From: a virus
Length of the DNA: 64,000 bases
Strand: one strand, 5' to 3'
IMG/VR virus record: IMGVR_UViG_3300028833_000010
Part shown: positions 472 to 64,000 of the stretch, one piece after another
How positions within the stretch are numbered: the first letter of the stretch is position 1
Layout of the letters: each line of letters starts with the position of its first letter
The notes under the pieces: model-generated
The model's database searches: none
Seen by the model: the letters and a program-made list of their open reading frames with translations, nothing else
What the model was told of the DNA's origin: nothing
Made by a program: the position numbers and the translations under genes

Positions 472-495
472 TTGTAAATAACTAAATTGTAAGTC

Positions 496-1186: not shown

Positions 1187-1194
1187 GAATAATT

Positions 1195-7192: not shown

Positions 7193-7195
7193 ATC

Positions 7196-7450: not shown

Positions 7451-7487
7451 TAAGCAGTTATAAAGTTGATAAAATATAAATAAAGTT

Positions 7488-22300: not shown

Positions 22301-22305
22301 CGAAT

Positions 22306-30407: not shown

Positions 30408-30417
30408 ACCGAAGGAG

Positions 30418-38303: not shown

Positions 38304-38645
38304 ATGGAAGCGAACATTTATCAAAAAGCCATAGAACAGCTGGTATTGGAAGGAAATACGATATTACAAGTGTGTACTCCGAACAAGGATGAGTTCTTGT
38401 TCTTTGCCGTATATAAATGGCAAGAAGGGTATTTTAACACGGCTCAGTCTATTGATTTCAATACTGTGGAAGGTGTAAACATTACAGAGTTCTTAACTAA
38501 GAACGCAGCAATGTACTCTAATAGAACAAACTTTATATCGTCATTCAACCGAGTAATGGAAGAAGGAGTTTTGGTACGTTGCGAGTTCACAAAGAGTGCA
38601 ACTTGGTTTAAGTGGGCAGCTCCGAATGGTACAAAGAAACTGTAA
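38304..38645 (+). CDS. Hypothetical protein
   Basis: 113-aa ORF starting 2 nt after the upstream stop. Confidence 0.4.
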   Translation: MEANIYQKAIEQLVLEGNTILQVCTPNKDEFLFFAVYKWQEGYFNTAQSIDFNTVEGVNITEFLTKNAAMYSNRTNFISSFNRVMEEGVLVRCEFTKSATWFKWAAPNGTKKL

Positions 38646-38650
38646 ATAAA

Positions 38651-40138
38651 ATGAAACTGAGTAGATATCAAACAACGATTTATAAAGTATTTCAAAAGAC
38701 GAAGAAAGATATCAACATTTCAGCAGTTGCAGGTTCAGGGAAAACTACGGTGTTATTGGAGTTATTGAATTTTATTCCGAACAACGCCAGTTCCCTGTTC
38801 CTTGCTTTTAATAACTCAATTATTGATGAGTTAAAGGAGCGAAACAAACGAAAAGATGTTGAAATCATGACTATACATTCTTGCGGTTGGCGTTCTATAT
38901 TGAGCCGATACGGAGGAAGAGTGAAGATGAATCCAAACAAGGGCATTGCTAAAACAGAGAGAGCGTTGAAGGGTTTTGAAGACATTCCTGAAAATAAGCG
39001 AGGTTGGTATTATTTTATAATACCAAAAATGCTTGACCTTATGCGTTGTAACTTGTGCGAGAATACTGAAGAAGCTATAAACGAGTTGTCTGAACACTAT
39101 GATTTGAATGTCGGAGAAACGGAGGTGAAAGTTGCTATGAAAGCATTTGAGCTTCTGATTAAGGATAAGGGACAATTTGATTTCATGGATATGATATATG
39201 TTCCTGTTACTGACCCTTCGATACGTTTCAGAAAGTATGACTATGTATTTTGTGATGAAAGTCAAGACTTCTCAATATGTCAACATCAGTTCATAAAGAA
39301 TTGTTTGAACCGAAAAGGAAGGTTGGTGACTGTGGGAGACAAAAGGCAAGCAATATACGGCTTCGCAGGAGCTGACGCAGAAAGTTACGACCGACTGGCT
39401 AACATTAACGGACAAGCAATTAAACTGCCTTTGAGTGTGTCTTATCGGTGTGCTGTTAATATAGTGAAGGAAGCTCAGAAGATAGTGCCTGAAATATCAT
39501 ATGCTCCGAATGCTGAAGAAGGGATAGTCAAAGATGGAAGCCTGACCGAGATAGAGCAAGGTGATTGGATACTTTGTCGAAACTTAAAACCATTGGTTCA
39601 AACTTATCTTTGGTTAATGAAAAACAAAATCAAATCAAAGATACGAGGGAAAGAGATTGGCGAAGGTATTCTTGGACTGATAAGCAAAACAGGAGCTAAA
39701 ACAATCAATGGTTTGTTCTCTATGCTTGATGTTGAAAAGGATAATTTATTGAGGAAACTGGAAAAACGAGGAGTGCGAAAACCGAGCCTGCACTCTAAGA
39801 TGGAAGTGCTTCAGCAAAAGATAGAAGTTATTGAATGTCTTTGCGAGGAGGTTGAAAGCGTGGCTGAATTGAAAAAGCTAATCAATAGCATATTTAGCGA
39901 TGATATTAAAGGTATAATGTTATCTACTATTCACAAGGCGAAAGGCTTGGAGAATGCCCGCATTTTCTTCCTATGCCCAGAGTTGATACCGAGTAAATAT
40001 GCTACTTTGCCATGGCAGTATGAACAAGAACAAAATTTGAAATATGTGGCAATAACGAGAGCAAAGAAAGAACTAATATATGTTAGTGGAAATACTTTCA
40101 ATCAAGACATCAAAGACAGAGTTATTATTCAAAAATAG
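38651..40138 (+). CDS. UvrD/Rep-like SF1 DNA helicase, paralog 1
   Basis: AVAGSGKTT (motif I), FCDESQDF (II), VGDKRQAIYGFAGA (III), STIHKAKGLE (V), YVAITRAK (VI). I placed the start at ATG 38651. Confidence 0.75.
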   Translation: MKLSRYQTTIYKVFQKTKKDINISAVAGSGKTTVLLELLNFIPNNASSLFLAFNNSIIDELKERNKRKDVEIMTIHSCGWRSILSRYGGRVKMNPNKGIAKTERALKGFEDIPENKRGWYYFIIPKMLDLMRCNLCENTEEAINELSEHYDLNVGETEVKVAMKAFELLIKDKGQFDFMDMIYVPVTDPSIRFRKYDYVFCDESQDFSICQHQFIKNCLNRKGRLVTVGDKRQAIYGFAGADAESYDRLANINGQAIKLPLSVSYRCAVNIVKEAQKIVPEISYAPNAEEGIVKDGSLTEIEQGDWILCRNLKPLVQTYLWLMKNKIKSKIRGKEIGEGILGLISKTGAKTINGLFSMLDVEKDNLLRKLEKRGVRKPSLHSKMEVLQQKIEVIECLCEEVESVAELKKLINSIFSDDIKGIMLSTIHKAKGLENARIFFLCPELIPSKYATLPWQYEQEQNLKYVAITRAKKELIYVSGNTFNQDIKDRVIIQK

Positions 40139-51976: not shown

Positions 51977-52389
51977 TAGTTAGTCAAATTCCAGAAGAAA
52001 GCGGCAAGCCTAAGATTCAAAAGAAAATGAAAACCACGACAAAGAAGGCAAAGGACTTCGATGATGAGGAAGATGATAGCTTGGACGATACAGACGAAGA
52101 GGAGGATGAGCCAAAGCGTTTGAAGAAAACAATGATTAATTTCTCAGAAGAGGGAATTGTTATTTCAGCCTACGATTTGAATTGCATTGAAAAGGATATG
52201 AGATTTGTTGAGAAGCCGAATGCTCACTGGGAGTTCGGTATCACGATAAACAAAGGACTCAATCCAGGACAGTTTATTAATAAAACAGACTTATCTATGT
52301 GGTATATCAAGGAAGAAGTCAGAGACCAAAAATGGAACAGGCTGATGGAACTCCTGAAATTAGAAGGTCTCAACGTTATTGAGGTATAA
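51964..52389 (+). CDS. Hypothetical protein with an acidic tract
   Basis: 141-aa ORF overlapping the upstream gene by 13 nt. Confidence 0.4.
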   Translation: MVKVIVSQIPEESGKPKIQKKMKTTTKKAKDFDDEEDDSLDDTDEEEDEPKRLKKTMINFSEEGIVISAYDLNCIEKDMRFVEKPNAHWEFGITINKGLNPGQFINKTDLSMWYIKEEVRDQKWNRLMELLKLEGLNVIEV

Positions 52390-52439
52390 TAAACAGTTAT
52401 AGTACTGTTACATTTGTTAAATTTAATTGTAAAAAGAAA

Positions 52440-52742
52440 ATGAAAAAGTATGAATTGGTAGCCGCAGTGGCTAAGGAAACTGGTATGACCCAGACAGACG
52501 TGAACAAAGTAATTGACGCAATGTGTCCTGTAATCGTAAAGGCTTGCGTTGAGGATGGTGATGAAGTGAACCTGCCGGCTCTTGGTAAGTTTAAACAGAA
52601 GGTCAACCCTGCTCGAAAGGGTATCAATCCGTTGACTAAGAAACCGATGGATGTGCCTGAAAGCCATACGTTGAAGTTCACACCAACTGCTACTATCAAG
52701 AAGGTGGTAGATACCAAACCAGCAAAGAAAGCTAAAAAGTAA
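52440..52742 (+). CDS. HU/IHF-family DNA-binding protein
   Basis: MKKYELVAAVAKETGMTQTDVNKVIDAM...LPALGKFKQKVNPARKGINPLTKKPMDVPESHTLKFTP is the classic HU fold pattern, including the beta-arm RxGxNP. Confidence 0.8.
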   Translation: MKKYELVAAVAKETGMTQTDVNKVIDAMCPVIVKACVEDGDEVNLPALGKFKQKVNPARKGINPLTKKPMDVPESHTLKFTPTATIKKVVDTKPAKKAKK

Positions 52743-52765
52743 TCAAGACATTTTCTAATTTTGAG

Positions 52766-52812
52766 ACGGAGATTAGCGAATCATGTTTGCTTTTCTCCGT
52801 TTCTTTTATTTT
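52766..52812 (+). terminator. Intrinsic terminator
   Basis: ACGGAGA (52766-52772) pairs with TCTCCGT (52794-52800) and is followed by TTCTTTTATTTT. Confidence 0.6.
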
Positions 52813-52852
52813 ACCAAAGTTTATAATTACAATTTAACAAAAGTAGAATATA

Positions 52853-53188
52853 ATGAAAGCAATAACAACGAAAGAAAAGTTGCCAAAATTTCTTGTAGTG
52901 AACGGAGAGCCTGAAAGCAAACCTTGGAATAAACATCTTTTGAAGCCTTTCAAGAAAGGTGAGATTGTAAAGGTAGCTCCATTTGAGGAACAAGTAAGAA
53001 ATGACAAACATGATTACTTGTTTCAGTATTACAAAACTAACAACGACCCAGAGTTTTTCCGCAAAAGATATGTAGTTGTTTATCGAAAAGATGATGAAGG
53101 CAAGTGGACGCTCAAATACACTGAAGTGTGGAATTCATTTGATTTATTAACAATAAAAAAGAAGGAGTGTGACAAGGTTAATAACTAA
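52853..53188 (+). CDS. Hypothetical protein
   Basis: 111-aa ORF. Confidence 0.4.
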   Translation: MKAITTKEKLPKFLVVNGEPESKPWNKHLLKPFKKGEIVKVAPFEEQVRNDKHDYLFQYYKTNNDPEFFRKRYVVVYRKDDEGKWTLKYTEVWNSFDLLTIKKKECDKVNN

Positions 53189-53218
53189 GTCACATGGTTT
53201 CAACATTAATAACAATAT

Positions 53219-53881
53219 ATGATAAAGAGTAATTACATAGTGTTTGATTGCGAGACAGGTGGGTTGTGTGAGGACAAAAATCCAATAACTCAATATGCTG
53301 CTGTAGTTCTTGACGGCTCTACTTTGAAGGAGATTGACCGTTGGGAAACATTCGTCAAGCCTTATGCTGATTTAGTTATCGAACAAGATGCTTTGGATAG
53401 AACTATGGTGAGTATGTCTGATATAAACAAAGGCATGAGCGTTAAAGAGTTTATATCAACTGCTACTGAATTCTGGGAAACTCATAGAGTGAAATCCAAG
53501 AAAAAGGAAATGGGAAGACTTGTACCAGTAGGTCATAATGTTCCTTTTGATATTCGTTTTTTGAATTACGCTCTTTCTCTTCAGAAGAAGGACAATGTTG
53601 AGTTTTGGATGTATCCGAATATCATTGACACCTTTCCACTTGCTAAATTAGCTTGGGGAATTAATGGAGAAGAGAAACTCAACTTGGGAGCTTCTTGCGA
53701 GAGGGCAAAGATACGACTTACAGACGCTCATGGTGCTATGAACGATGTAGAAGCGACAGCCGACCTTTTACGATGGTATATGCGTAAACTTCGAGCAAAG
53801 AGAGGTGATGGTGTAGAGGAAGTTGCGAAAGGCAGGGCAAAGGGAAGTGAGTTTTTTGAATTTAAGTGTGGTGCAAAATAG
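53219..53881 (+). CDS. DnaQ-like DEDDh 3'-5' exonuclease
   Basis: Exo I IVFDCETGGL, Exo II VGHNVPFDIRFL, Exo III HGAMNDVEATADLL. Confidence 0.75.
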   Translation: MIKSNYIVFDCETGGLCEDKNPITQYAAVVLDGSTLKEIDRWETFVKPYADLVIEQDALDRTMVSMSDINKGMSVKEFISTATEFWETHRVKSKKKEMGRLVPVGHNVPFDIRFLNYALSLQKKDNVEFWMYPNIIDTFPLAKLAWGINGEEKLNLGASCERAKIRLTDAHGAMNDVEATADLLRWYMRKLRAKRGDGVEEVAKGRAKGSEFFEFKCGAK

Positions 53882-53909
53882 ATTGTTTAACAATAAAATC
53901 GAAAATCGT

Positions 53910-54668
53910 ATGTCTGAAACAAATGAAACTCCGAAACGCAAACGGAGGACAAAGGAAGAGATTGAAGCTGCTAAGGCAGCAGGAACTTACAAACCAAGAA
54001 CAAGGAAGAAGGTTGAGGAAGCTCTAAAGGAGGAAACAGTGAAGGCTCCTGAGGAATTTCAAGCAAAACCTACGAAACTGCCTGCTGAACAATCCGTTCT
54101 GATTATGGCTTGCCTTCAGCCTGAGGTATCAAAGAAGGTTACTGACTTTGCAAAGGAGAAGGGTGTTGAGGTTGTAATTCTTGAAGACCGAGTAATTCAT
54201 GACTATTTGAGCGTCAGAGACCGTGAAGGAAAAGAGGAGAGAAGTTTGGGAGACTTTCTGAATGATACTTCCAATCGTTTACATGCTGAAGACCAATGTG
54301 TAAAGCTATGGATGATACTTACGAAAGGTCAACCGATTGAGAACGCAGAGCAAAGAGTATTCACGAGAACAGAAGTTGTTAAAGCAACTAATCTATCTCA
54401 CAGAAAAGCCGAGCAAGTCTTTCAGTTGCTCCGAGCCTTTGGAATGTTAAGATTTACAAAAGGAACTCACGAGTTTGTTCTCAACTTCGGTAAGAAGAAA
54501 TGTCAAGATACTATCAAGACAGAAGTTCTTGCGATGTGCAAAGCGTTGAACAGCGACATTCTCCGTTACAAGACATCAATCGAAGCTGATGCTGAATTAA
54601 CGAAAAAGCAAAAAGATGAAATGCTCAGAGAGTTACAAAAATCTGTTGATGAGACGATTGAGTATTAA
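53910..54668 (+). CDS. Hypothetical DNA-binding-like protein (possible small terminase by position)
   Basis: I placed the start at ATG 53910, after the exonuclease stop. It has a basic N-terminus and a wHTH-like segment (TRTEVVKATNLSHRKAEQVFQLLRAFGML). It lies immediately upstream of the large terminase. Confidence 0.3.
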   Translation: MSETNETPKRKRRTKEEIEAAKAAGTYKPRTRKKVEEALKEETVKAPEEFQAKPTKLPAEQSVLIMACLQPEVSKKVTDFAKEKGVEVVILEDRVIHDYLSVRDREGKEERSLGDFLNDTSNRLHAEDQCVKLWMILTKGQPIENAEQRVFTRTEVVKATNLSHRKAEQVFQLLRAFGMLRFTKGTHEFVLNFGKKKCQDTIKTEVLAMCKALNSDILRYKTSIEADAELTKKQKDEMLRELQKSVDETIEY

Positions 54669-54693
54669 GTAGAAACAATATAAAAATAGTTTG

Positions 54694-54725
54694 AAAGCTA
54701 ACAGGGCGCAATCCTTGTTAGCTTT
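54694..54725 (+). terminator. Hairpin upstream of the terminase gene
   Basis: AAAGCTAACAGG pairs with CCTTGTTAGCTTT, with one bulge. Confidence 0.5.
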
Positions 54726-54745
54726 GTCATATAAATAGGATTGAT

Positions 54746-56464
54746 ATGATAGCAACAGCATCAGACGTAATTACAAAAACTCCTGTGACCTTGTTACAGT
54801 CTCCGATGCATCAATTGGAATGTCTCAATATAGTAGACGAGATAATTGACGGCATGGATGATAAGGGCATATTGGAGCTTATGCAAGGTTCAGAAGGAGA
54901 CTTGGATTGGGTATTAGATAACTTGATGAAAGACACGTATCAGGTTATGTACACTGGCGACCCAAATATTGACTTCGCTCCGAAATACACAGAGAGACTT
55001 TCACAGTCAATCGAAGAAACATTGCGGACACGCAACCTTACTTACTTTATTACTTCTGTAATGCCAGACTTTCAATTATCTTGGCATCATTTGGAATGGG
55101 GAGACTTGGTACACCGATACAATAAATTATGTATCAATGCCGCACGTGACCACGGCAAATCATATTACTTCTCAAATGCCTATTGTGCATGGAAGCTCTA
55201 TTCTTACGCAAAACCAAAATCAAGTGCATTCTCTGCACGACCTACAAAGAGCAATTCCAATCGTGGATATTTGTTTAGCTTCTCACTCCAGCAGTCTGTT
55301 GACCTTATGGAGATTTTGAAGGGAACAATTGAAAGTAATGATATTCTCAAAGATAGGCTGTATCCTGATTCAAGGAATAGTGGAGCATGGGCGAGTACGA
55401 ACATAGTATGTAGGAACGGAGCGAGGTTGACGTGTAAGGGATTTGGGTCATCAGTACGTGGTGCTCACCCATACTGGATAGTAGTAGATGATGGATTGAA
55501 AGATAACGTCATCTACAGTGCCCTACAACGTCAGAAAAGCATAGATTATTTTCACTCTGTTATAATGAACATGCTCGTGCCAGGAGGACAAATCATTGTC
55601 GTTGGTACTCCGTTCCATGCTTCTGACTTATACGGAGATTTGAAGAGTAAGAGCATATTTGCCACACATAATAAGAAGGGGTGGTTTGTAATCGAATACC
55701 CTGCTATATTTCCTGATGGACGTATATTATGGCCACAGCGTTGGAGTTTCTTCGATTTGATGGACAAGAAAGCAACGCAAGGTAATATCATTTTCAGTCG
55801 TGAGAACTTATGTAGACCTATTACCAATGAGGCTTCTATATTCCCATTGAAAGTCTTGGAGCGTTCGTTGGTACGTATGGAGAACTATACGTTGGTACGC
55901 AATCGTGATGACTTCCCAATTAAGTTTAACAAAGTAGTTACTGGTTGTGACTTCGCAATATCTGCTAACGTAGGAAGTGACTACACTGTGTTCACAACTT
56001 GGGGTGTTGATGACGAAACAGGAGAGCGTTGGTTGTTGAACTTCTACAGAGATAAAGGCAAGACTTTCCACGAACAGATGCAAATATTGAAAGGAATTAA
56101 CGCAAGATTTAGACCTGATAGCATGGTGATGGAGCAAAACACATTCCAACAGATATTTGTTGAGGAAAGTGATAAACAAGGGTTGCCAGTTATAGGACAT
56201 ACCACTGGAATAGATAAGTACGACTTGAAGACAGGGTGGCCTGGACTGGCCATAGATTTTGAGCGAGGTAAGATACATATACCAATTGGCGATAAGTATT
56301 CACAAGACGTGAAAGATTTGATTTTCTCAGACCTTGGTTCTGTAGCGTTCACCGATAAGGGTTTGGAGAGTGTAGGTGAGCATGACGATATTTCGTCAAG
56401 TTTTTGGCTTGCTAAATTAGCTGCTAACTTGATAACCACTGGCTTCAAATACACCTTCCTTTAA
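54746..56464 (+). CDS. terL: Terminase large subunit
   Basis: Walker A-like NAARDHGKS, Walker B YWIVVDDG, coupling motif VVGTPFH, and a C-terminal RNase-H-like nuclease beginning VTGCDFAIS. Confidence 0.7.
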   Translation: MIATASDVITKTPVTLLQSPMHQLECLNIVDEIIDGMDDKGILELMQGSEGDLDWVLDNLMKDTYQVMYTGDPNIDFAPKYTERLSQSIEETLRTRNLTYFITSVMPDFQLSWHHLEWGDLVHRYNKLCINAARDHGKSYYFSNAYCAWKLYSYAKPKSSAFSARPTKSNSNRGYLFSFSLQQSVDLMEILKGTIESNDILKDRLYPDSRNSGAWASTNIVCRNGARLTCKGFGSSVRGAHPYWIVVDDGLKDNVIYSALQRQKSIDYFHSVIMNMLVPGGQIIVVGTPFHASDLYGDLKSKSIFATHNKKGWFVIEYPAIFPDGRILWPQRWSFFDLMDKKATQGNIIFSRENLCRPITNEASIFPLKVLERSLVRMENYTLVRNRDDFPIKFNKVVTGCDFAISANVGSDYTVFTTWGVDDETGERWLLNFYRDKGKTFHEQMQILKGINARFRPDSMVMEQNTFQQIFVEESDKQGLPVIGHTTGIDKYDLKTGWPGLAIDFERGKIHIPIGDKYSQDVKDLIFSDLGSVAFTDKGLESVGEHDDISSSFWLAKLAANLITTGFKYTFL

Positions 56465-56524
56465 TGCCCAGAGTTTATAATGATGTAGATGTTTAGATTT
56501 AATAACAATAAAAGAAGATTAGAC

Positions 56525-56968
56525 ATGAAACAAAGAAAAGTCAAGATGATTTTAAAAGATGGTGGTGAAGCTCCTGTCTATGCTACTCCTGGAAGTTCAG
56601 GAGCTGATGTTAGAGCAAATGAAACTTTCACAATTCAGCCTAATGAACGCAAGATGATTCACACTGGTATTTACATGCAATTGCCAGAAGACATGGAAGT
56701 TCAAGTAAGACCAAGAAGCGGACTTGCTATAAAACATGGCATTACTTGCGTTAACGCACCAGGCACTATTGATAGCGATTATCATGGTGAGTGCAATGTC
56801 CTTCTTATAAATCACGGAGACAAAGAAGTGAGCTTTGAGAAGGGAGAACGCATTGCTCAGTTTGTATTTGTAGAGAATGTTGTTCATGCAGACTTTGAGT
56901 TTGTTGAAGAGTTTTCCGAGACTACGGAAAGAGGAGAAGGAGGATTTGGTCACACAGGAACTAAATAA
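56525..56968 (+). CDS. dut: dUTP diphosphatase (trimeric dUTPase)
   Basis: Motifs GSSGADVRA, RPRSGLA, GTIDSDYHGE, RIAQ and ERGEGGFGHTG. I placed the start at ATG 56525. Confidence 0.85.
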   Translation: MKQRKVKMILKDGGEAPVYATPGSSGADVRANETFTIQPNERKMIHTGIYMQLPEDMEVQVRPRSGLAIKHGITCVNAPGTIDSDYHGECNVLLINHGDKEVSFEKGERIAQFVFVENVVHADFEFVEEFSETTERGEGGFGHTGTK

Positions 56969-56995
56969 CAGAATGAGCCTGTGAATTAAACAGAT

Positions 56996-57292
56996 ATGAA
57001 GATTGAAAGTTTTATATTAAAAATTCTCAAGAATATTGAAGAGACTTGGCCAGAAGTTGTTTGCTATGCTTATAAGACTGGTAATGCTATGATGACTTAT
57101 GTTTGGTGGGAAGTCTCTGTTTCAGATTTTGAATTATATATGCACGATAAGCGTTTCAAGACTTTAATCAACGCTTGGTATAAGGCAGCGAAAGTTCAAG
57201 GACATAAGATAATTTTTGTTTGCGATTGGAAGCCTACGGAGGAGAAACTTGTGAAACTGGCAGAAGATGATAACTTGATATTGAGTGTGTAA
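56996..57292 (+). CDS. Hypothetical protein
   Basis: 98-aa ORF. Confidence 0.4.
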   Translation: MKIESFILKILKNIEETWPEVVCYAYKTGNAMMTYVWWEVSVSDFELYMHDKRFKTLINAWYKAAKVQGHKIIFVCDWKPTEEKLVKLAEDDNLILSV

Positions 57293-57317
57293 TTTTTTTA
57301 TTTTTCATAGAGGTAGT

Positions 57318-57358
57318 GGGAGGAGTTGCTTGTGAAAGTAGCTCTTCCTTTTTTTTTT
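57318..57358 (+). terminator. Imperfect hairpin plus T10 tract
   Basis: GGGAGGAGTTGCT...AGTAGCTCTTCC followed by TTTTTTTTTT. Confidence 0.55.
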
Positions 57359-57395
57359 ACAAAAAGTTAAATTTAGCAAAGTTTTTTATAAAAAG

Positions 57396-57429
57396 TTTTG
57401 CGGTCATAAAATAAGTTCGTATCTTCGTA
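57396..57429 (+). promoter_or_regulatory. Class-1 promoter copy P4
   Basis: GTTTTGCGG with TTTG ending at 57400, a 19-nt gap, then TATCTTCGTA (57420-57429). Confidence 0.55.
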
Positions 57430-57452
57430 CAGATAATCAATATAACAAAGTC

Positions 57453-58934
57453 ATGGGAACATTCATACCAAGTAAATATCAAAGAGCTGTTTACACCTAC
57501 ATTGAGAAGGGTAAGGGCAATGCGGTTATAGATGCAGTAGCAGGTTCAGGTAAATCTACAACAATTGTAAATGCGTTGAAACTTATTCCGAAGGATAAAA
57601 GAGTATTATTTTTAGCATTCAACAAGGCAATTGTAGAGGAACTAAAAATCAAAGTGGGCAATCTCAACAACGTAGACATTAAAACGCTACACAGCTTGGG
57701 AGCTTCAGCAACTATGCGAGCTTTGAACTCCCAGCTTCAGGTTGATAAATATACGGCTTGGGTAAATAATGGTATTAAATACTCTTCACTTTCTCCGAAG
57801 TCTGATTTGTTGCCTGAACAGATGTCGACTTGGAAGGGAAATATATTGAAGCTTATTGACCTTGGTAGAGTGAACTTGGTTAAGTCAGAGAAGGAATTGG
57901 AAGAACTTGCTTGGAAACATAATATTGATTTGGAAGATAACGAAGTTGATATTGCTATTAAGGGTATAAATTGGGGAGAAGTAGAAACACAAGTCATAGA
58001 TTTTACAGACATGATATATTTCCCCAACGTCAAACGAATAAAGATGTTCCAATATGATTGGGTATTTATAGATGAATGTCAAGACCTTAATGCAGCTCAA
58101 AGAAACTTGTTTTTGAAATGTTTGAAACCGAATGGAAGATTTGTAGCCGTAGGAGACCCACGTCAGGCAATATATGGGTTTGCTGGAGCAGACGTTGAAA
58201 GTTTCAATCTTTTGAAGAGACTTCCGCATACAGTGAAACTTCCTTTGTCTGTATGTTATCGTTGCGATGGAGACATAATTAGTTTAGCTAAGGATATAGT
58301 GCCTCAGATAGAAGCAAGAGAAGGTGCGCCAGCAGGTGTAGTTAGTAGAGAAAGTGTTGTGGCGGATGTTAAGGATGGTGATATGATACTTTGCAGGGTT
58401 TCAGCTCCGTTGGTTAAATTATGTATGCAATATATCGGGAAGGGAGTGAAAGCATATGTGAAAGGTAAGGATGTTGGAACTAATCTTATTAACATGATAA
58501 AGAAAACTAATCGCAAGCAGATTAAAGACGTAATGGAACGGCTTGAAAGGGAATTATCACGGATAATTGGAAAGGTGGTAGCAAAGCAGGGATGCACCGA
58601 AGCTGAAGCAAAAGAACATGAAATGTACAAGAGCTACGAAGATAAGTTGAAAGCAATAGAAGTTCTTTCAGAAGGATTGGAAACTTCACAAGAAGTTATT
58701 GACCGCATAGATATGATTTTCTCCGATGATAACAAGAATGGTATTTGTTTGAGCACAATTCATAAATCGAAGGGATTGGAAAGCGACAGAGTATTCATCA
58801 TATGTGAAGATAAGCTGTATTTGAAATATTGTATGTCTGTTCCTTGGATGGCAGAACAAGAAAGGAACTTGGTTTATGTAGCTTATACAAGAGCAAAACA
58901 TTTCCTTGGTTTCATTCAGGACTTCGTGGCATAA
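57453..58934 (+). CDS. UvrD/Rep-like SF1 DNA helicase, paralog 2
   Basis: AVAGSGKST, FIDECQDL, VGDPRQAIYGFAGA, STIHKSKGLE and YVAYTRAK. It is collinear with the helicase at 38651..40138. Confidence 0.75.
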   Translation: MGTFIPSKYQRAVYTYIEKGKGNAVIDAVAGSGKSTTIVNALKLIPKDKRVLFLAFNKAIVEELKIKVGNLNNVDIKTLHSLGASATMRALNSQLQVDKYTAWVNNGIKYSSLSPKSDLLPEQMSTWKGNILKLIDLGRVNLVKSEKELEELAWKHNIDLEDNEVDIAIKGINWGEVETQVIDFTDMIYFPNVKRIKMFQYDWVFIDECQDLNAAQRNLFLKCLKPNGRFVAVGDPRQAIYGFAGADVESFNLLKRLPHTVKLPLSVCYRCDGDIISLAKDIVPQIEAREGAPAGVVSRESVVADVKDGDMILCRVSAPLVKLCMQYIGKGVKAYVKGKDVGTNLINMIKKTNRKQIKDVMERLERELSRIIGKVVAKQGCTEAEAKEHEMYKSYEDKLKAIEVLSEGLETSQEVIDRIDMIFSDDNKNGICLSTIHKSKGLESDRVFIICEDKLYLKYCMSVPWMAEQERNLVYVAYTRAKHFLGFIQDFVA

Positions 58935-58965
58935 TCTAAGGATTGATTGTGATGAAAGTTAAAAA

Positions 58966-58996
58966 GCGAGAATTTTCCAAAGATTTTCGCTTTTTT
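58966..58996 (+). terminator. Intrinsic terminator
   Basis: GCGAGAATT pairs with AGATTTTCGC (with G-U pairs) and is followed by a T6 tract. Confidence 0.65.
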
Positions 58997-58997
58997 A

Positions 58998-59031
58998 TTT
59001 TGCCGTTTCAAAAATACTTCGTATCTTCGTA
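58998..59031 (+). promoter_or_regulatory. Class-1 promoter copy P3
   Basis: TTTTGCCG (58998-59005), a 19-nt gap after TTTG, then TATCTTCGTA (59022-59031). Confidence 0.6.
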
Positions 59032-59079
59032 GTGTAATTGTAAATAAAGATTGTAAATCAAACAGTAAATTTCAAACAT

Positions 59080-59859
59080 ATGGAAGCAACAAATCAAAAT
59101 TTGGACAGCGTATTAAAGAAGCTGAGAAAGTTACAAAACCTTTATGAAGGTGCAAAGAAAATTAATTCTGAAGGGGAAGCAAACGCAGCAGCTGCGGCAA
59201 TCCAAAGACTTCTCACCCAGTACAATTTGTCGATGGACGAGATTGGAACGGATGAGGAGAAAGCAAAAGACTCTGTGCTTGAGGAAAAGGTAGATGGTTT
59301 TACTTACAAGAGTATCGGAGGTGAATGGGAGTTCCGTTTGTTGTACGTTATTTGTAAGTGGAATTTTTGCAAATGTTTTCAAGTAGGAGGCACTTACAAG
59401 AAATTGATGATTTTCGGCAAGAAAGAAAATATTGAAACTGTTAAGTGGTTGCGTTCGATGCTTGCTGAACGTTTTGTATCATTCTCCAAAAACAGATTCA
59501 ACGAGTACAAGAAAACTATGGAGTATGCTCTAAATCCTATCAGTATGGATAAGTATCAGAGAAGTTACTTGATGGGATGTGCGGCTGGACTGGATGCTAA
59601 ACTGAAAGAAGAGAGCGACCGAGAAAAAGCGAAGGATGCCGAATTTGGAGCAAAAGTAACTGCCTTGGTAGTTCGTAATGATGCAGCCGTTACCGAGTAT
59701 ATTGAAAGCAAATACAAGATAGGTAAGGGAAAGGCAAGAAGAGAGAAATTTGATTCAGCCAGAGCCTTCGGGTTCAGAGATGGCAAAAATACTGAGCTTC
59801 ATAAACAAGTAAGTTCGGGAGCGAAGAGTCAAGCCAGTGGAGTGAAATTGCTTAAATGA
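59080..59859 (+). CDS. DUF2786-like protein
   Basis: The N-terminal LKKLRKLQNLYEGAKKINSEGEANAAAAAIQRLLTQYNLSMDEI matches my recollection of the DUF2786 helical motif. Confidence 0.45.
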   Translation: MEATNQNLDSVLKKLRKLQNLYEGAKKINSEGEANAAAAAIQRLLTQYNLSMDEIGTDEEKAKDSVLEEKVDGFTYKSIGGEWEFRLLYVICKWNFCKCFQVGGTYKKLMIFGKKENIETVKWLRSMLAERFVSFSKNRFNEYKKTMEYALNPISMDKYQRSYLMGCAAGLDAKLKEESDREKAKDAEFGAKVTALVVRNDAAVTEYIESKYKIGKGKARREKFDSARAFGFRDGKNTELHKQVSSGAKSQASGVKLLK

Positions 59860-59880
59860 CCATATGTGTTTGATTGAGAT

Positions 59881-59912
59881 TATGGGGGTTGTTCTTCGGA
59901 ATGACTCCCATA
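59881..59912 (+). terminator. Long hairpin with a UUCG tetraloop
   Basis: TATGGGGGTTGTTC-TTCG-GAATGACTCCCATA pairs throughout, with G-U pairs. Confidence 0.55.
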
Positions 59913-59937
59913 GTTATTTATAAGAAAACTTTTGAAC

Positions 59938-60912
59938 ATGAATATATTATTTGATGGTAACTATTTGTTCCACAAAACATTCTCCGTTTTCTCTACTTAT
60001 TACAAAGGGCAGGACATGGGAGAAGTTTTACAAGATAAGGAGAAACAACAAGTATTGATACGCAAATGTATTATGGATATGTGCTTTGCTTTAAAAAAGT
60101 TTAAGGACATCAAACGAGTAGCATTTGTGATAGATAGCTCTTCATGGCGTTACAGTATATACGATGATTATAAGTACGCTCTTACGAGGGTCAGAGACCC
60201 ATTTTACAAGCATTTCCTGACTGTATTAGATATGTTTGAGGCTCTTCTTCGGAAAAAGGGGTTAATCGTCAGTAGGGTCATGGGAGCAGAGGGTGATGAC
60301 CTTCTGTACGTATGGGGGTTGTATTTCGGATATTGTTTGGACGAGGAATTGGTGATAATCACTGGTGACTCTGATATTCGACAAATCATGAATAAAAATG
60401 TTTCCTTGTTCAATAACAACTCAAAGAACTTGAAAATGTATTGTATTCCAGAGAAGGAAGTATTTTGGAACGAGTATCTTGAAACCGATGTTCAGGTCAT
60501 ACCTACGAAGCCATTTGAGGTTTTGTTATATAAGGTCATCATGGGAGACACTTCTGATAACATTCCGAAGCTCAAAGTGGGGTTTGGACAAAAGGCTTTT
60601 GATAAGTTTATTGAATCAATTTCTCCTTATCAAGAGCCAAAGGATATTGACCTTGTACCAATGGCTCAATGGATTGCTAAACATTTCTCTGAGTTTACGA
60701 AAATGAAAGAGGAGGAAGTGTTGGGACAAGTTTTATTTAATCTGAAGATGACGTGGTTGAACTTGTCTGTATATAACAATACCGATTATCAGACAGAAAA
60801 CGGCAAAAGCCTTCTTGAAAATATGCTTGACGATGTAAACGAACAAAAAAATAAATACAGTTATAGTAAGGCATACACATTAGAAGATTTTTATGGCATG
60901 GCAATTAAATAA
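59938..60912 (+). CDS. 5'-3' exonuclease / flap endonuclease (T4 RNase H / FEN, PIN-like)
   Basis: ILFDGNYLFHK, VIDSSSWRY, GAEGDDL, ITGDSDIRQ and MGDTSDNIPKL..GFGQK, the FEN-family acidic clusters plus an H3TH-like segment. Confidence 0.7.
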   Translation: MNILFDGNYLFHKTFSVFSTYYKGQDMGEVLQDKEKQQVLIRKCIMDMCFALKKFKDIKRVAFVIDSSSWRYSIYDDYKYALTRVRDPFYKHFLTVLDMFEALLRKKGLIVSRVMGAEGDDLLYVWGLYFGYCLDEELVIITGDSDIRQIMNKNVSLFNNNSKNLKMYCIPEKEVFWNEYLETDVQVIPTKPFEVLLYKVIMGDTSDNIPKLKVGFGQKAFDKFIESISPYQEPKDIDLVPMAQWIAKHFSEFTKMKEEEVLGQVLFNLKMTWLNLSVYNNTDYQTENGKSLLENMLDDVNEQKNKYSYSKAYTLEDFYGMAIK

Positions 60913-60918
60913 ACATTG

Positions 60919-61098
60919 ATGAATATGAAAAAGAAAACAATCATCTGGGTTGCAATTATTGTAGCTGTAGTTATCGGAGTGTTGGTGTATATGCATTACA
61001 CTCCTGTTTGGGTATCAATCTCAAACGTTGTGAGTTTAGCAATCGGTGTCGTTGTCGGCTGGATTGCTCATGTTTTGTATAACAAATATATCAAATAG
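60919..61098 (+). CDS. Small two-pass membrane protein
   Basis: Hydrophobic segments IIWVAIIVAVVIGVLVY and VVSLAIGVVVGWIAHVLY. Confidence 0.4.
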   Translation: MNMKKKTIIWVAIIVAVVIGVLVYMHYTPVWVSISNVVSLAIGVVVGWIAHVLYNKYIK

Positions 61099-61103
61099 TA
61101 ATC

Positions 61104-61763
61104 ATGGACGAAATTAGAAAAGCAATTCAAGGAGCAAGAGCTGCTCAGCGAGAACGCATCATGGAAAGTTTTTTAAACTTCCAAGAAGTAACAGCGGATG
61201 ATGATGCTATCCGCAAGGGTGAAGAAGATGAAAATCCATTTGATATAGCTGCCGAAGAAGCTGACATGGAGAAGTCTGATATAATGGATGCTTTAAGCTA
61301 TCAGTCAGACATTAAAGTGTCCAAGACTGGTAAGGAGATTAAAGACCAAGTGGACACTGTTATACTGCCTGATATTAATGCAGACTTGGCTGTAAAGGAA
61401 GCTGAAGCTGACGAGAAGTTGAAAGACTGCGGAACAGCTCCGACCAAAGACCCAGACAAATATTGGACAGACGGCATTGAGATGGATTGTGGTTACAAAA
61501 TCTATGATTGGAACGAAACCTATGTTCCAGACAATAACTCAGGAAATATGATGAGTTCTCTTTCAGCCGAAGATGCGGAAGCTAAGAAAGGTAACGTGCC
61601 TGAAAATCAAGAACAAGCATTGTGTCGTAGAGAGTACAACGAAATTGTAAGAGCCATTTGTAATATCAAAGTTGATATCAAAGCGTGTGAGATTTTGAAA
61701 ACTCTTGCGGATAACAAAGAGTTTGAACTTTCACCACGTCAGGTATTAGCATTGAGATTTTAG
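61104..61763 (+). CDS. Hypothetical acidic protein
   Basis: 219-aa ORF. Confidence 0.4.
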   Translation: MDEIRKAIQGARAAQRERIMESFLNFQEVTADDDAIRKGEEDENPFDIAAEEADMEKSDIMDALSYQSDIKVSKTGKEIKDQVDTVILPDINADLAVKEAEADEKLKDCGTAPTKDPDKYWTDGIEMDCGYKIYDWNETYVPDNNSGNMMSSLSAEDAEAKKGNVPENQEQALCRREYNEIVRAICNIKVDIKACEILKTLADNKEFELSPRQVLALRF

Positions 61764-61791
61764 TGTGTGGGGTTTTTATTGAGTTGAAGAG

Positions 61792-61830
61792 GGGAATTGA
61801 GTTGTGAAACTTGATTCCCTTTCATTTTTA
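61792..61830 (+). terminator. Intrinsic terminator with a GTGA loop
   Basis: GGGAATTGAGTT (61792-61803) pairs with AACTTGATTCCC (61808-61819), including two G-U pairs, and is followed by a T-rich tract. Confidence 0.65.
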
Positions 61831-61862
61831 TTTCCCATAGTTATTAAGTAAAATGTTATAGT

Positions 61863-62204
61863 ATGTCAATAGATAACAATAATCCAAAAGTCTGGAGCTA
61901 CTTTAAGCGAGGAGATATTGTCAATGATTCAGAAGATAGTGTGTGGGGTAATACTAAATTTGAAATCACTGGGTTTCATGGTAATTGGTACTGTCCTTTA
62001 TTATCAACGAATATATGTGGCAAGTTATATCCCAGTGGCAAGCCTCAGCGTTGTAATTTAGTAGCAACAGAAGCAAGGTTAATTAATGCAGCTCAACGAC
62101 CTTTCAAAAGAATGAAAAAAGTTCCTTTGCTGAAATTAATGGCGAAAGGAAACTTGGAAGCGAGGAGAGAATTTGTTATGAGAGTAAACACAAAAACTTT
62201 ATAA
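61863..62204 (+). CDS. Hypothetical protein
   Basis: 113-aa ORF. Confidence 0.4.
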   Translation: MSIDNNNPKVWSYFKRGDIVNDSEDSVWGNTKFEITGFHGNWYCPLLSTNICGKLYPSGKPQRCNLVATEARLINAAQRPFKRMKKVPLLKLMAKGNLEARREFVMRVNTKTL

Positions 62205-62207
62205 TTT

Positions 62208-63320
62208 ATGTTTGAACAAGCAACATGGTATGACAAGCTCCCAGACGAGACCTTGGAAGTATACGAGCCTCATTTGAGATTATTCTTTGAGACTATGTAT
62301 GAGCGACAAATGATTTGGAAACGTAGGTTCATAGATAAGAAGGAGAGACCTTGGACAGATAACAAGATATTCCAAGAGTCAAAATTTACGAACGTGTACA
62401 GAGAACTTGACCGAAACAGTCAGTGGCAAATCAAAAACATTCTTCTTGATGAAAGTCTTTCTTTGAAAAACTTGATTTGGAAGATGATGGTTTTCCGTTT
62501 CTTCAACAATCCTGAAACCTTCGAGTTTGAATCAAGGGGAAAGAGTGTTCAACTCAGTTTATTTGGAGCACCTATCAAATCAGGACTTAAACAAGCTCAA
62601 TCCAAAGATGAGCTCATTTCAGCTAAAAAATGGAAAAATGGTATTCCTGATTGGGAGGAGTATGATGAGGATGAATTTAGTCGTTTTATTGCTGGTGTTA
62701 GGAGTTCAGGACAAAATCCATATACAACTGCTTATTTGATAAACTCTCAGGCAACACCTGGTCAACCGAGAGATTATTGTTATACAAAGGTTGTAATTCC
62801 TCACCTTCATAAAAATGTAGGAAAACTCATTGATACAGTGATGAAAGCTAAGAAGCCAGAAGATATTATTGAGTATCTGAAAACATTCCCTGCGGTTGCT
62901 GACTTTATTGCTCATGAGTTCTATCAGGACTTCACATATATAGAGCGGTACAGAGGTAAGCAATTTATGAAGTTCGACCAAAATGACTTCACGAATGTTG
63001 GACCAGGGTGCAGTATCGGCATACGACTTATTTATCCAAACCTTTCAACAATCAAAGAACAGAAGCCTGCTATTTATTGGCTCAGAGACCTTGCTGCAGA
63101 ATGGCTTGAAAAGATTGGCGAAGAGAAGGGTGAGCGTTTTCCATATCTTTATTGGGACATAAAAGAAGGTAAGTATTATACAGCCGATGAGCCAAACATA
63201 ACTCTTCATCAGATTGAGATGTGGCTATGCGAGTTCCAAAAATATTGGAAGATGATTATTGGAGAAGGTAAGCAGCGTAGCAAATTTCAACCAAGGAGTA
63301 AATCAATCATTTCAAAATAA
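62208..63320 (+). CDS. Candidate DNA base-hypermodification protein (aGPT-pyrophosphorylase / 5-hmdU-DNA-kinase helical-domain superfamily)
   Basis: The N-terminal YERQMIWKRRFIDKKERPWTDNKIFQESKFTNVYRELDRNSQW matches the signature I recall for this all-alpha family (..R..I...R......PWT.D.I....FTN.YR..DR.SQ). No P-loop is present. Confidence 0.5.
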   Translation: MFEQATWYDKLPDETLEVYEPHLRLFFETMYERQMIWKRRFIDKKERPWTDNKIFQESKFTNVYRELDRNSQWQIKNILLDESLSLKNLIWKMMVFRFFNNPETFEFESRGKSVQLSLFGAPIKSGLKQAQSKDELISAKKWKNGIPDWEEYDEDEFSRFIAGVRSSGQNPYTTAYLINSQATPGQPRDYCYTKVVIPHLHKNVGKLIDTVMKAKKPEDIIEYLKTFPAVADFIAHEFYQDFTYIERYRGKQFMKFDQNDFTNVGPGCSIGIRLIYPNLSTIKEQKPAIYWLRDLAAEWLEKIGEEKGERFPYLYWDIKEGKYYTADEPNITLHQIEMWLCEFQKYWKMIIGEGKQRSKFQPRSKSIISK

Positions 63321-63321
63321 A

Positions 63322-64000
63322 ATGGACAAGAAATTAACAGAATTTTTTGAGAATAAGGGGTTTGAGGTAGTGGAAAAGAAAACCACTACCCAAATTCTTA
63401 TTGAGAACTTACTTGCGTTCAGTGTGCGTGAGAAGAATGGAGGGTTGTTTGATATTTCAATCAACATGGTAAAGGATGAGGAAGAAAAGGAGAAGTTGAG
63501 AAAACGTATCAACCATGAAAGCTCTTCGGAGAATGAAGGTTGGAACATTGACTTGGAGAAAACTCCTATACTTCACAATGTAACGATAAGTCAGTTTGAA
63601 GCATTTTGCAAGCAAACTAAGCTCATTGCTCAGGTGAAACGTCTTTCTGAGTTCCGAGAGGTGCAGAGCGAATTTACGTTGGCAGTAGCAGAGAAGGGGG
63701 GCAAGACGTTGAAGTGGCGTTCAAACCTTCCTACAGAGAAGCATATTGTTGATGCAGTATTCAAAGGTAGTGAGTACACCCACCGCTCAGTAGGTTTGGG
63801 CGGTTTAACTCTTACTAATAAAGACATTGTGTTGGACTTGGGAGGTAATATCGGTGCTTTCACGTGCGACATATTCGATAAAGTCAAAAAGGTCATTGTA
63901 TTTGAACCTGAAGATGTGAACTATGAATTTCTATCTACGAACATAGAAGACAATGGAGCAAAGAATGTAATTGCCCATAAACAAGCAGTAGTTGGTAATG
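63322..64000 (+). CDS. SAM-dependent methyltransferase (FkbM-like), 3'-truncated by the window end
   Basis: ATG 63322 is 2 nt after the upstream stop and the frame stays open to nt 64000. Motif I VLDLGGNIGAFT and motif II-like KVIVFEPE are present. The gene is absent from the ORF track because it has no stop inside the window. Confidence 0.55.
   Translation, partial: MDKKLTEFFENKGFEVVEKKTTTQILIENLLAFSVREKNGGLFDISINMVKDEEEKEKLRKRINHESSSENEGWNIDLEKTPILHNVTISQFEAFCKQTKLIAQVKRLSEFREVQSEFTLAVAEKGGKTLKWRSNLPTEKHIVDAVFKGSEYTHRSVGLGGLTLTNKDIVLDLGGNIGAFTCDIFDKVKKVIVFEPEDVNYEFLSTNIEDNGAKNVIAHKQAVVGN

Follow-up and report, generated by a model that had tools for sequence, protein, structure and literature searches.

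We analysed a 64,000-nucleotide (nt) stretch of viral DNA (IMG/VR record IMGVR_UViG_3300028833_000010; one strand; hereafter the window) and propose that a 370-amino-acid (aa) open reading frame (ORF) at 62208 encodes the central and conserved enzyme of a module that modifies pyrimidines in a clade of ∼90–100 kb gut phages; the clade is widespread and probably infects Bacteroidota. The predicted protein belongs to the HMUDK_hel family, and a gene for an FkbM-type S-adenosylmethionine (SAM) methyltransferase follows directly. The characterized routes to hypermodified thymidines all begin with a nucleobase kinase and continue with a transferase of the ADDT family, and the paralogous HMUDK_hel proteins of the same phages have never been given a function. 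What appears to be new here is the context: HMUDK_hel as sole member of its superfamily in a kinase-less genome, followed by a slot for swappable tailoring enzymes. We suggest a kinase-independent pathway that would derivatize 5-hydroxymethyl-2′-deoxyuridine (5-hmdU), and to which the methyltransferase would add a facultative tailoring step, a reading that we place a little short of probable.

A preliminary description of this DNA had assigned the ORF, from a short peptide at its start, to the superfamily of all-alpha pyrophosphorylase-like and 5-hmdU DNA-kinase helical domains, and had suggested profile searches and structure prediction as checks. The ORF is as described (coordinates of this and other features are given in Table 1), the peptide fits the family consensus ERQxIWxxRF..PWT..KFTNVYRELDR, and both types of search support the assignment. 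The protein matched Pfam family PF18723 (HMUDK_hel) with E = 1.6e-49 (169.2 bits against a cut-off of 25), in two stretches that extend to profile position 278 of 281, and no other Pfam family; in PHROG, it matched phrog_2396, whose function is not assigned (8.5e-47). A collection of 5.8 billion proteins contains 619 close homologues, and 2363 of 1.84 billion cluster representatives match at E ≤ 1e-3, the best 150 being mostly stand-alone proteins of 285–430 aa. The protein has no Walker A motif, in line with the reported lack of a P-loop. Its AlphaFold2 (AF2) model, built from a 139-sequence alignment (pLDDT 93.1, pTM 0.91), shows an all-alpha, HhH-glycosylase-like fold with an extra insert of ∼40 aa at low pLDDT (residues ∼107–145). 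The top Foldseek match in BFVD was the SP10 ‘5-hmdU DNA kinase’ gp186 (E = 6e-14, TMq 0.67, 24% identity); the HMUDK_hel proteins of SP10, phiRSL1, a Nodularia phage, a Microbacterium phage and PhiW-14 matched at E = 6e-14 to 9e-6 (TM 0.55–0.70). A ‘Pplase1’ protein scored 2e-4, and the match to an ADDT protein was weak (E = 0.4). In the PDB, the top matches were 8Z2N and 8Z2M (PaMx11 gp46), which were non-significant (E = 0.16, probability 0.77–0.82, TM 0.32–0.41), ahead of likewise non-significant matches to QNG1/DUF2419 (third, E = 0.63) and to two HhH glycosylases, AlkA and Ogg. QNG1/DUF2419 we take to have a glycosylase fold and to use a free nucleotide as its substrate. As a PDB sequence search returned nothing even at E ≤ 10, the link to the solved ADDT structures comes from Foldseek and from the motif described below.

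At the sequence level, the protein is 24–26% identical over its full length to PaMx11 gp50, CBA120 orf156 and a Bacillus phage homologue; BLAST found no similarity to PaMx11 gp46, and there was no ADDT (PF18724) match at E ≤ 1. In current Pfam, ADDT (formerly aGPT-Pplase2) holds the proven transferases and HMUDK_hel is the second paralogue group. In control searches, PaMx11 gp46 matched ADDT (1.6e-27), and PaMx11 gp50 (5.6e-41) and CBA120 orf156 (1.6e-83) matched HMUDK_hel. By its profile matches, the 370-aa ORF is a full-length, stand-alone member of HMUDK_hel, a known family without an assigned function. A label of terminase small subunit, which comes from a match to PHROG 800 (2e-11, profile positions 293–474 of 511), was rejected because it stems from a misannotated kinase and because TerL has its own upstream neighbour. 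The kinase concerned, PaMx11 gp49 (NC_028770.1 39217–39786; L135 9218–9787), is labelled ‘terminase small subunit’ in RefSeq and has been shown experimentally to be a 5-hmdU DNA kinase (PMC8989533). Its orthologues in Ab18, ZC01, Ab19, PAKlein3 and Rhodoferax phage P26218 carry the same label, which seems to have spread from the gp49 group to PHROG 800.

Conservation was read from an alignment of 139 family members, down to 25% identity. R33, D68, F233 and G267 are invariant, and W49, F60, N62, R65, R97, N100, A175, D241, G265, P266, G271, E337, C341, E342, K345 and Y346 are conserved in at least 90% of members. The window protein retains all of these columns, including PWT, FTNVYRELDR, a GPG hairpin and a C-terminal E-x3-C-E-x2-K-Y. 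This C-terminal element of the family, IE(M/H)xLCEFxKY, resembles VETILC247KW of PaMx11 gp46 in form, and the sole local alignment of the family hidden Markov model (HMM) in gp46 places C341 on Cys247 and E337 on Glu243, non-significantly (hmmsearch E = 0.19). A 24-column hhalign match between the family alignment and the single gp46 sequence was likewise non-significant. ADDT enzymes cannot work without this Cys and a Glu close by (PMC8989533, PMC11472151), and the phosphate of 5-phosphomethyl-dU is replaced via a covalent Cys–C6 intermediate (PMC8989533, PMC11472151, PMC13458397). Thymidine-hypermodifying phages carry two paralogous ‘DNA-glycosylase-like’ groups: the ADDTs, with M6 gp51, ViI gp247, PaMx11 gp46 and PhiW-14 gp109, and a second group with ViI gp160, M6 gp55 and the C-terminal part of SP10 gp186 (PMC5889632, Table 3), which was omitted from minimal reconstitutions and has no assigned function (PMC8989533). 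Taken together, these data argue well, if indirectly, for HMUDK_hel proteins being enzymes with ADDT-related chemistry on a pyrimidine. The ORF had earlier been called the transferase type of its superfamily. It does keep the Glu/Cys motif (E337/C341), but as the family is HMUDK_hel, not ADDT, and its paralogues are dispensable in vitro, we would infer a transferase rather than assign one.

Comparison with characterized systems underlines what is shared and what is not. The window protein has its Pfam family, its stand-alone form and the IE..LCE(F/L).KY motif in common with ViI gp160 (= CBA120 orf156), M6 gp55, PaMx11 gp50 and PhiW-14 gp72, whose genomes also encode a dUMP hydroxymethylase. 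However, in those phages a P-loop 5-hmdU DNA kinase and an ADDT are present as well, frequently as neighbours (PaMx11 gp49 and gp46); neither was detected here. Their HMUDK_hel genes, unlike the window gene, have no methyltransferase neighbour. Most stand-alone HMUDK_hel proteins were named ‘aG/PT-PPlase1’ by Lee et al. 2018. The ADDTs (PaMx11 gp46/PUGT, M6 gp51, ViI gp247, PhiW-14 gp109 and SH-Ab 15599 Pplase2) share the all-alpha architecture with HhH-like elements and, by the non-significant alignment above, would share a Glu-x3-Cys at the equivalent C-terminal helix, but belong to a different Pfam family (TM 0.34–0.44); they need kinase-made 5-phosphomethyl-dU and a bound metal (PMC13458397). 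Whereas SP10 gp186 (637 aa) is a fusion of a P-loop 5-hmdU DNA kinase and the helical domain, the window protein corresponds to the latter domain only. Among cultured phages, Bacillus phage YungSlug (MT416612.2, Herelleviridae) encodes a stand-alone HMUDK_hel protein (L008 5965–7023, 2.2e-53), with a gene for a 413-aa ThyA-like protein 1 kb downstream and no adjacent P-loop gene.

We compared 73 informative related IMG/VR loci with HMUDK_hel proteins 50–95% identical to that of the window; a retrieval with the family alignment, of which the best 80 loci were kept, gave close relatives only. HMUDK_hel was found at the same position in 73/73, within the conserved order p113–HMUDK_hel–p119–portal, where p113 and p119 denote proteins of 113 and 119 aa. 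The slot 3′ of HMUDK_hel, by contrast, varies, and contains a methyltransferase, a TET/JBP-associated glycosyltransferase (TAGT) plus methyltransferase, a radical-SAM/SPASM enzyme plus TAGT-like gene, head-fibre-like ORFs or nothing. As only 24 of the 73 loci carry the FkbM methyltransferase, it would be an accessory tailoring add-on in this clade and not an obligate partner. The radical-SAM/SPASM gene is present in some relatives only. In three loci (L036, L038 and L039), a TAGT (PF20691, 4e-10) lies between HMUDK_hel and the methyltransferase, suggesting glycosylation of a hydroxymethyl-pyrimidine. Base J systems also use a TAGT, and a TAGT stands beside HMUDK_hel in these relatives, but there is none in the window, and the source of hydroxymethyluracil (hmU) would here be a hydroxymethylase of the ThyA type, active before replication, instead of a dioxygenase.

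Adjacency of the two genes is kept at low identity: in L080, HMUDK_hel is 51% and the methyltransferase 53% identical, and on a 90-kb ENA contig a 44%-identical methyltransferase gene overlaps the HMUDK_hel stop codon. A separate lineage of ∼50 kb, with a 41%-identical HMUDK_hel protein of 413 aa and an AT-hook-like N-terminus (RGRGRPRK), carries the block DUF6378–HMUDK_hel–methyltransferase–dUTPase–143 aa–ThyA-like in 14/14 loci. There, the methyltransferase belongs to another family (Methyltransf_23/12/25), and the block contains neither a kinase nor a glycosyltransferase. That a neighbour is exchanged for an analogous enzyme of a different family is a classic sign of functional linkage, and we argue from this gene context that the HMUDK_hel–methyltransferase association is functional. 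The coupled pair of the preliminary description thus recurs, down to 44–53% methyltransferase identity and throughout the ∼50 kb lineage, but is facultative in the clade (24/73), and to call it coupled says too much.

Two further arrangements were seen in relatives. In a sub-clade with 55–57% identical HMUDK_hel proteins (L190–L207, ∼600–1420), a TAGT (PF20691, 1.1e-14) lies between TerL and the dUTPase gene, 5 kb upstream of HMUDK_hel, and is followed by a ferritin-like protein. Beyond the window, a conserved trio follows a Mu-F-like head gene (L098 10001–12814 in a close relative; L027 19263–21100). It consists of a 225-aa protein with an LmbE/PIG-L-like ‘PHSDD’ motif and without a Pfam match, a 483-aa protein with sub-threshold GT1 matches and, in many methyltransferase-negative relatives, a radical-SAM/SPASM protein as third member. 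The trio may represent another modification module, acting on DNA or on the virion.

Genes that could supply 5-hmdU lie elsewhere in the window. The ThyA-fold enzyme previously noted at 24939 is a 413-aa ThyA-family protein whose scores stay below all cut-offs of the NCBIfam thymidylate-synthase equivalogs (75.9 bits at best, where 174.55 is required). Among cultured phages, it comes closest to the SP-10 ‘dUMP hydroxymethylase’ (44.6%), to SPO1-like phages and to M6; it is 41% identical to PaMx11 gp51 and keeps the catalytic Cys (IPCND) and the uracil-specifying Asn (LPTN). From these sequence features, it is most likely a dUMP hydroxymethylase that makes 5-hmdUMP. The dUTPase had been placed at 56525, within the gene now delimited. 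For the region 29754–30693, the HD nucleotidase was correctly recognized (YfbR-like; NCBIfam NF003009 at 2.1e-8, below its cut-off), but the neighbouring gene described as MazG-like encodes instead a protein with DUF1599, the ‘nucleotide modification associated domain 1’ (NMAD1). The HD nucleotidase probably helps to reshape the pyrimidine pool; in PaMx11, an HD gene adjoins the hydroxymethylase gene. By tblastn, homologues of the 370-aa ORF occur in 438 cultured-phage records, mostly from groups with 5-hmdU-derived thymidine modifications (ViI-like, M6-like), plus other groups, and per host genus the numbers of HMUDK_hel and hydroxymethylase-like homologues are similar (Salmonella 164/162, Vibrio 62/66, Klebsiella 45/44). 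Taken together, the evidence on the ThyA homologue and the presence of dUTPase, HD nucleotidase and NMAD1 make a 5-hmdU-containing genome the most reasonable reading.

The methyltransferase gene starts with an ATG 1 nt after the HMUDK_hel stop codon, not 2 nt as first reported. As the window cuts the gene, the complete protein (352 aa, L001 11115–12173) was read from L001, a Logan contig 100% identical to window 52208–64000 (L001 coordinate + 52207 = window coordinate). Its initial classification as FkbM-like is borne out by TIGR01444 (5.7e-19, 69 bits against 37.7) and PF05050 (7.5e-9, 36.4 bits against 22.7). Like other FkbM O-methyltransferases, it passes both curated cut-offs and keeps the SAM residues, but an N-terminal region of ∼150 aa without a family match is added before the methyltransferase domain. 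The SAM site is intact: VLDLGGNIGAF and the acidic FEPE are invariant in an alignment of homologues; these segments include motif I (D/G/N/G) and the acidic residue that follows strand 2. An AF2 model of an 86%-identical homologue (pLDDT 93.5) has a class I methyltransferase fold that matches generic class I nucleic-acid enzymes (RumA, RlmCD, TrmA, TYW2, fibrillarin; TM 0.3–0.5); naming a substrate from this ranking (m5U RNA methyltransferases, TYW2, fibrillarin) was dropped, as the matches are too generic. No profile of a classical DNA methyltransferase (N6A, N4C, C5C) matched, the only Pfam matches being FkbM and, weakly, RrnaAD and TRM5-TYW2, and no DPPY/NPPY or PC-Q motif was seen when the sequence was read by eye.

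The two-domain form of the methyltransferase (∼340–355 aa) was found only in this clade, and the N-terminal region was seen solely in versions that stand next to HMUDK_hel. By tblastn, cultured phages gave 11 records with methyltransferase homologues, 0 of them from known thymidine-hypermodifying phages. Short FkbM homologues in unrelated phages sit in pyrimidine-metabolism clusters: one overlaps the gene of a glycosyltransferase, with ThyA-like and dUTPase genes nearby, and another lies among dCMP deaminase, dUTPase, an HD enzyme, a dTMP-kinase-like gene and ThyX. FkbM enzymes typically O-methylate hydroxyls of sugars, small molecules and natural products, and we know of no member that acts on DNA or nucleotides. 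Because they methylate hydroxyls, candidate acceptors include the oxygen of the 5-hydroxymethyl group, a hydroxyl on whatever group is appended or a sugar that a glycosyltransferase has attached. The characterized thymidine-hypermodification pathways that we consulted do without a methyltransferase (PMC5889632, PMC8989533, PMC11472151, PMC13458397), in agreement with the preliminary description, and O-methyltransferases are among the domains that co-occur with phage T-dioxygenase and glycosyltransferase pathways (PMC13229309).

We searched for the missing pathway enzymes in the window and in the remaining ∼26 kb of the genome, which was read in a relative of ∼90% DNA identity (IMGVR_UViG_3300045988_086496; three loci stitched). 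Pfam matches and our own scans of this sequence revealed no 5-hmdU DNA kinase, no ADDT and none of the tailoring enzymes of the canonical pathway (pyridoxal phosphate (PLP), radical-SAM or FAD type), and no called gene matched PF18748, PF18747, AAA_33 or Zeta_toxin. A Walker-A scan detected only DnaB, RecA, two UvrD-like helicases, TerL and one 660-aa protein. The absence of a P-loop 5-hmdU DNA kinase from the window, as stated in the preliminary description, is therefore upheld by scan and profile searches alike. Sequence beyond nt 64000 had been named as a place to look for a kinase, PLP enzyme, radical-SAM enzyme or glycosyltransferase. Read in the relative, it held neither of the first two, a radical-SAM gene occurs in some relatives only, and the GT1-like match of the 483-aa protein stays below the Pfam threshold (E = 3.6e-4, 20.5 bits against 26.4). 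A TAGT is absent from the window and from the close relative's genome. The 660-aa P-loop protein is unsupported as the missing kinase, with no Pfam, PDB or kinase-family match and one record calling it ‘TniB’-like. It (L098 12869–14848, Walker A GGAGIGKS) is 99–100% conserved across dozens of ∼100 kb contigs, and the phage looks virulent. As tblastn with the PaMx11 gp49 kinase found only 28 phage records, known kinases are too divergent to serve as a general probe. With no kinase or ADDT found, the canonical route of phosphorylation followed by substitution cannot simply be assumed.

In the pathway that we propose, the ThyA-like enzyme would, judging by homology, make 5-hmdUMP, with dUTPase, HD nucleotidase and NMAD1 biasing the nucleotide pool, and DNA would be replicated with 5-hmdU replacing some or all of the thymidine. 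HMUDK_hel, as family, fold and motif suggest, would be a glycosylase-like base-flipping enzyme that engages 5-hmdU and uses Cys341, with Glu337 and Glu342, as amino-acid:DNA transferases do: the thiol would add at C6, the 5-methylene substituent would leave and a nucleophile would add, yielding 5-(X-methyl)-dU. Gene context points to the downstream slot as the source of enzymes that may tailor this product. Because the slot gene here encodes an FkbM-type SAM methyltransferase, the product would carry a methyl group, for example as a methoxymethyl derivative or a methylated adduct; relatives with a TAGT, a radical-SAM enzyme or an empty slot would end with other products. Such a pathway would differ from every characterized one, since neither a 5-hmdU DNA kinase nor an ADDT was detected. 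A kinase-independent, methyl-containing thymidine derivative in this phage is plausible. More doubtful, to the point that we would not expect it to hold in full, is the most specific version: that the gut clade and the ∼50 kb lineage both make a kinase-free thymidine derivative, with HMUDK_hel acting directly on 5-hmdU through Cys/Glu and with interchangeable tailoring, giving a methyl-bearing base undescribed in DNA (for example, 5-methoxymethyl-dU).

Several points weigh against the proposed pathway. FkbM enzymes are generally regarded as small-molecule or sugar O-methyltransferases and are not known as DNA enzymes. The methyltransferase is missing from two-thirds of the relatives. The links to ADDT are weak (Foldseek E = 0.16–0.4, TM 0.34–0.44; hmmsearch E = 0.19; hhalign non-significant), and a reaction that does not involve a kinase would have to expel hydroxide or water, a chemically more difficult step. 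The remaining genome was read in a relative of ∼90% DNA identity and not in the phage itself, and a kinase of a non-P-loop type might be concealed among the many unannotated ORFs. Activity has yet to be demonstrated for any HMUDK_hel protein; reconstitution in vitro succeeded without M6 gp55, and a requirement for ViI gp160 was never shown (PMC8989533).

With these points in mind, we weighed four other explanations. The DNA might contain plain 5-hmdU, as in SPO1, with HMUDK_hel as a non-transferase that recognizes, binds or protects hmU-DNA, for instance in late expression or packaging, and with the methyltransferase as an unrelated accessory in a permissive site. In every relative, HMUDK_hel does belong to a late-looking unit that lies shortly before the portal gene, the same intergenic region takes unrelated cargo (head-fibre-like ORFs, homing endonucleases), its paralogues are unneeded for the known pathways in vitro (PMC8989533), and the stand-alone YungSlug homologue has no adjoining P-loop gene. 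Nonetheless, a near-invariant Glu-x3-Cys-Glu equivalent to the ADDT dyad is hard to fit with mere binding, the slot cargo is enriched for nucleic-acid-modification enzymes (methyltransferase, TAGT, radical SAM), and the ∼50 kb lineage fixes HMUDK_hel with the other methyltransferase inside a dUTPase/ThyA cluster in all 14 loci, and we consider this explanation unlikely. Alternatively, a phage glycosyltransferase could glycosylate 5-hmdU in DNA and the FkbM enzyme O-methylate the sugar, leaving HMUDK_hel separate or auxiliary. Such a role would agree with the usual preference of FkbM enzymes for hydroxyls of sugars and natural products, with the TAGT located exactly between the two genes in L036, L038 and L039, with the FkbM homologue of another phage that overlaps a glycosyltransferase gene near a ThyA-like gene and dUTPase, and with the GT1-like gene and the gene with the LmbE-like motif that are conserved in the clade; O-methyltransferases also co-occur with phage T-dioxygenase and glycosyltransferase pathways (PMC13229309). 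We rate it lower still, as neither the window nor the close relative's genome encodes a TAGT, the sub-threshold GT1-like gene is ∼10 kb away in the morphogenesis region, where its role may be a different one, the 225-aa protein matches nothing in Pfam, and the ∼50 kb lineage pairs HMUDK_hel with a methyltransferase in a block free of glycosyltransferases.

A route closer to the known ones, in which a divergent or non-P-loop kinase phosphorylates 5-hmdU in DNA and HMUDK_hel then substitutes the phosphate as an ADDT does, appears improbable to us. Every experimentally studied phage with HMUDK_hel has a 5-hmdU DNA kinase, SP10 even as a fusion (PMC5889632); the near-invariant arginines R33, R65 and R97 could bind phosphate; and known kinases are so divergent (28 records with gp49) that one might be concealed among dozens of ORFs without annotation. 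However, neither the Walker-A scan nor the kinase-family profiles gave a kinase in the window or in the relative's remainder, and the compact block of the ∼50 kb lineage also lacks one. Least probable, in our view, is that HMUDK_hel and the methyltransferase convert 5-hmdUMP (or dUMP) before replication and the product is then polymerized. The pair of the ∼50 kb lineage is indeed embedded among dUTPase and ThyA-like genes, FkbM homologues elsewhere lie among dCMP deaminase, dUTPase, HD enzyme, dTMP-kinase-like gene and ThyX, and the third PDB fold match, QNG1/DUF2419, is presumably a free-nucleotide enzyme; yet this last match is non-significant (E = 0.63), and the window gene stands in a late-looking unit beside the portal gene, far from the nucleotide-metabolism genes. 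Moreover, the ADDT relatives act on DNA, and the fold is of the DNA glycosylase type (PMC11472151, PMC13458397).

If the kinase-independent pathway is correct, it would provide the first function for HMUDK_hel proteins such as ViI gp160 and M6 gp55, which have been without one since 2013. In the clade, HMUDK_hel is universally conserved, keeps its catalytic motif and is wired to methyltransferases of two unrelated families. As it is also the sole superfamily member and tied to swappable tailoring enzymes, its function becomes directly testable. The ∼50 kb lineage may be a cleaner system for the chemistry of HMUDK_hel and methyltransferase, and YungSlug, should a kinase prove absent from the remainder of its genome too, would be a tractable kinase-less model. 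Hypermodified thymidines shield phage DNA against restriction enzymes and other nucleases, and DNA chemistry has adopted the enzymes that make them as tools. New DNA bases are predicted here in phages common in human gut metagenomes, where they would affect host range, sequencing bias and evasion of defence.

All window genes are carried on the + strand (Table 1). The modification unit p113–HMUDK_hel–methyltransferase–p119 shows operon-like packing, with gaps of 3 nt and 1 nt and then one overlap, and is bracketed by two terminator-like hairpins, the upstream one closing the preceding unit. In L001, there was no match to the Bacteroidetes-type promoter pattern TTTG..TAnnTTTG, and sigma-70-like matches were at chance level. 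The first gene of the unit, p113, is syntenic in nearly all relatives (32–90% identity) and matched neither Pfam nor PHROG.

Table 1. Location of features in the window and in related loci (window coordinates unless a locus name is given; L001 coordinate + 52207 = window coordinate)
Feature	Position	Strand	Remarks
Tail and baseplate	1–17 kb		
Replication region	17.6–36.7 kb		Helicases, DnaB, primase, ThyA-like, Pol III alpha, HD nucleotidase, DUF1599/NMAD1, RecA, SbcCD
ThyA-family enzyme, 413 aa	24939–26180	+	PF00303 8.3e-25
HD-domain 5′-deoxynucleotidase, YfbR-like	29754–30407	+	PF12917 on record; PHROG 7076 1e-15
DUF1599/NMAD1 protein, 101 aa	30388–30693	+	PF07659 5e-7, 30.4 bits against 25
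Small genes without assigned role, HU homologue, DEDDh exonuclease	after 36.7 kb		
TerL	54746–56464		phrog_38, 7e-55
dUTPase, 159 aa	56489–56968	+	NCBIfam NF001862 2e-52, 176.8 bits against 103
UvrD-like helicase, DUF7168, 5′–3′ exonuclease	downstream of dUTPase		
Terminator-like hairpin	61789–61822 (L001 9582–9615)	+	15-bp stem, then T run; consensus scan, pattern match only
Unit p113–HMUDK_hel–methyltransferase–p119, then portal gene	61863 onward		
p113, conserved protein, 113 aa	61863–62204	+	First gene of unit, 3 nt upstream of HMUDK_hel start
HMUDK_hel-family protein, 370 aa	62208–63320	+	ATG 62208, TAA 63318–63320
FkbM methyltransferase, 5′ two-thirds	63322–64000	+	ATG 63322; gene cut at window end
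Second terminator-like hairpin	L001 12566–12597		3′ of the 119-aa gene (p119), beyond the window; pattern match only
Block of the ∼50 kb lineage	L083 9559–13908; L211–L224		

TerL and the portal gene (L001 12660–14360, ∼window 64867–66567) are ∼8 kb apart, with dUTPase, UvrD-like helicase, DUF7168, 5′–3′ exonuclease and the modification unit between them, an unusual order that is kept across the clade. The HU-family DNA-binding protein (PF00216) is encoded at 52440–52742; the 5-hmdU phage SPO1 encodes an HU-like protein, TF1, with a preference for hmU-DNA. The two UvrD-like helicases (38612–40138 and 57453–58934) are paralogues, both matching phrog_1967 at ~1e-92.

A megablast search of 60000–64000 against GenBank phages gave no match. 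The nearest cultured TerL relatives, at 35% identity, are Bacteroides thetaiotaomicron phages, lending modest support to a Bacteroidota host. The stitched sequence of the close relative starts at window ∼56.1 kb, continues beyond 64000 and re-enters the window at 3–3038; given this return, the genome would be circular or circularly permuted, with a length of ∼90 kb. The ∼26 kb beyond the window, as seen in the relative, contain mainly morphogenesis and lysis genes. The relative also has three GIY-YIG-like homing endonuclease ORFs, judged by N-terminal sequence (stitch 325–921, 7000–7767 and 21853–22614), one of which matches NUMOD3 and none of which has a counterpart in the window, as well as a 645-aa insert near the dUTPase gene; these ORFs and the insert would explain much of the ∼10 kb difference in genome size.

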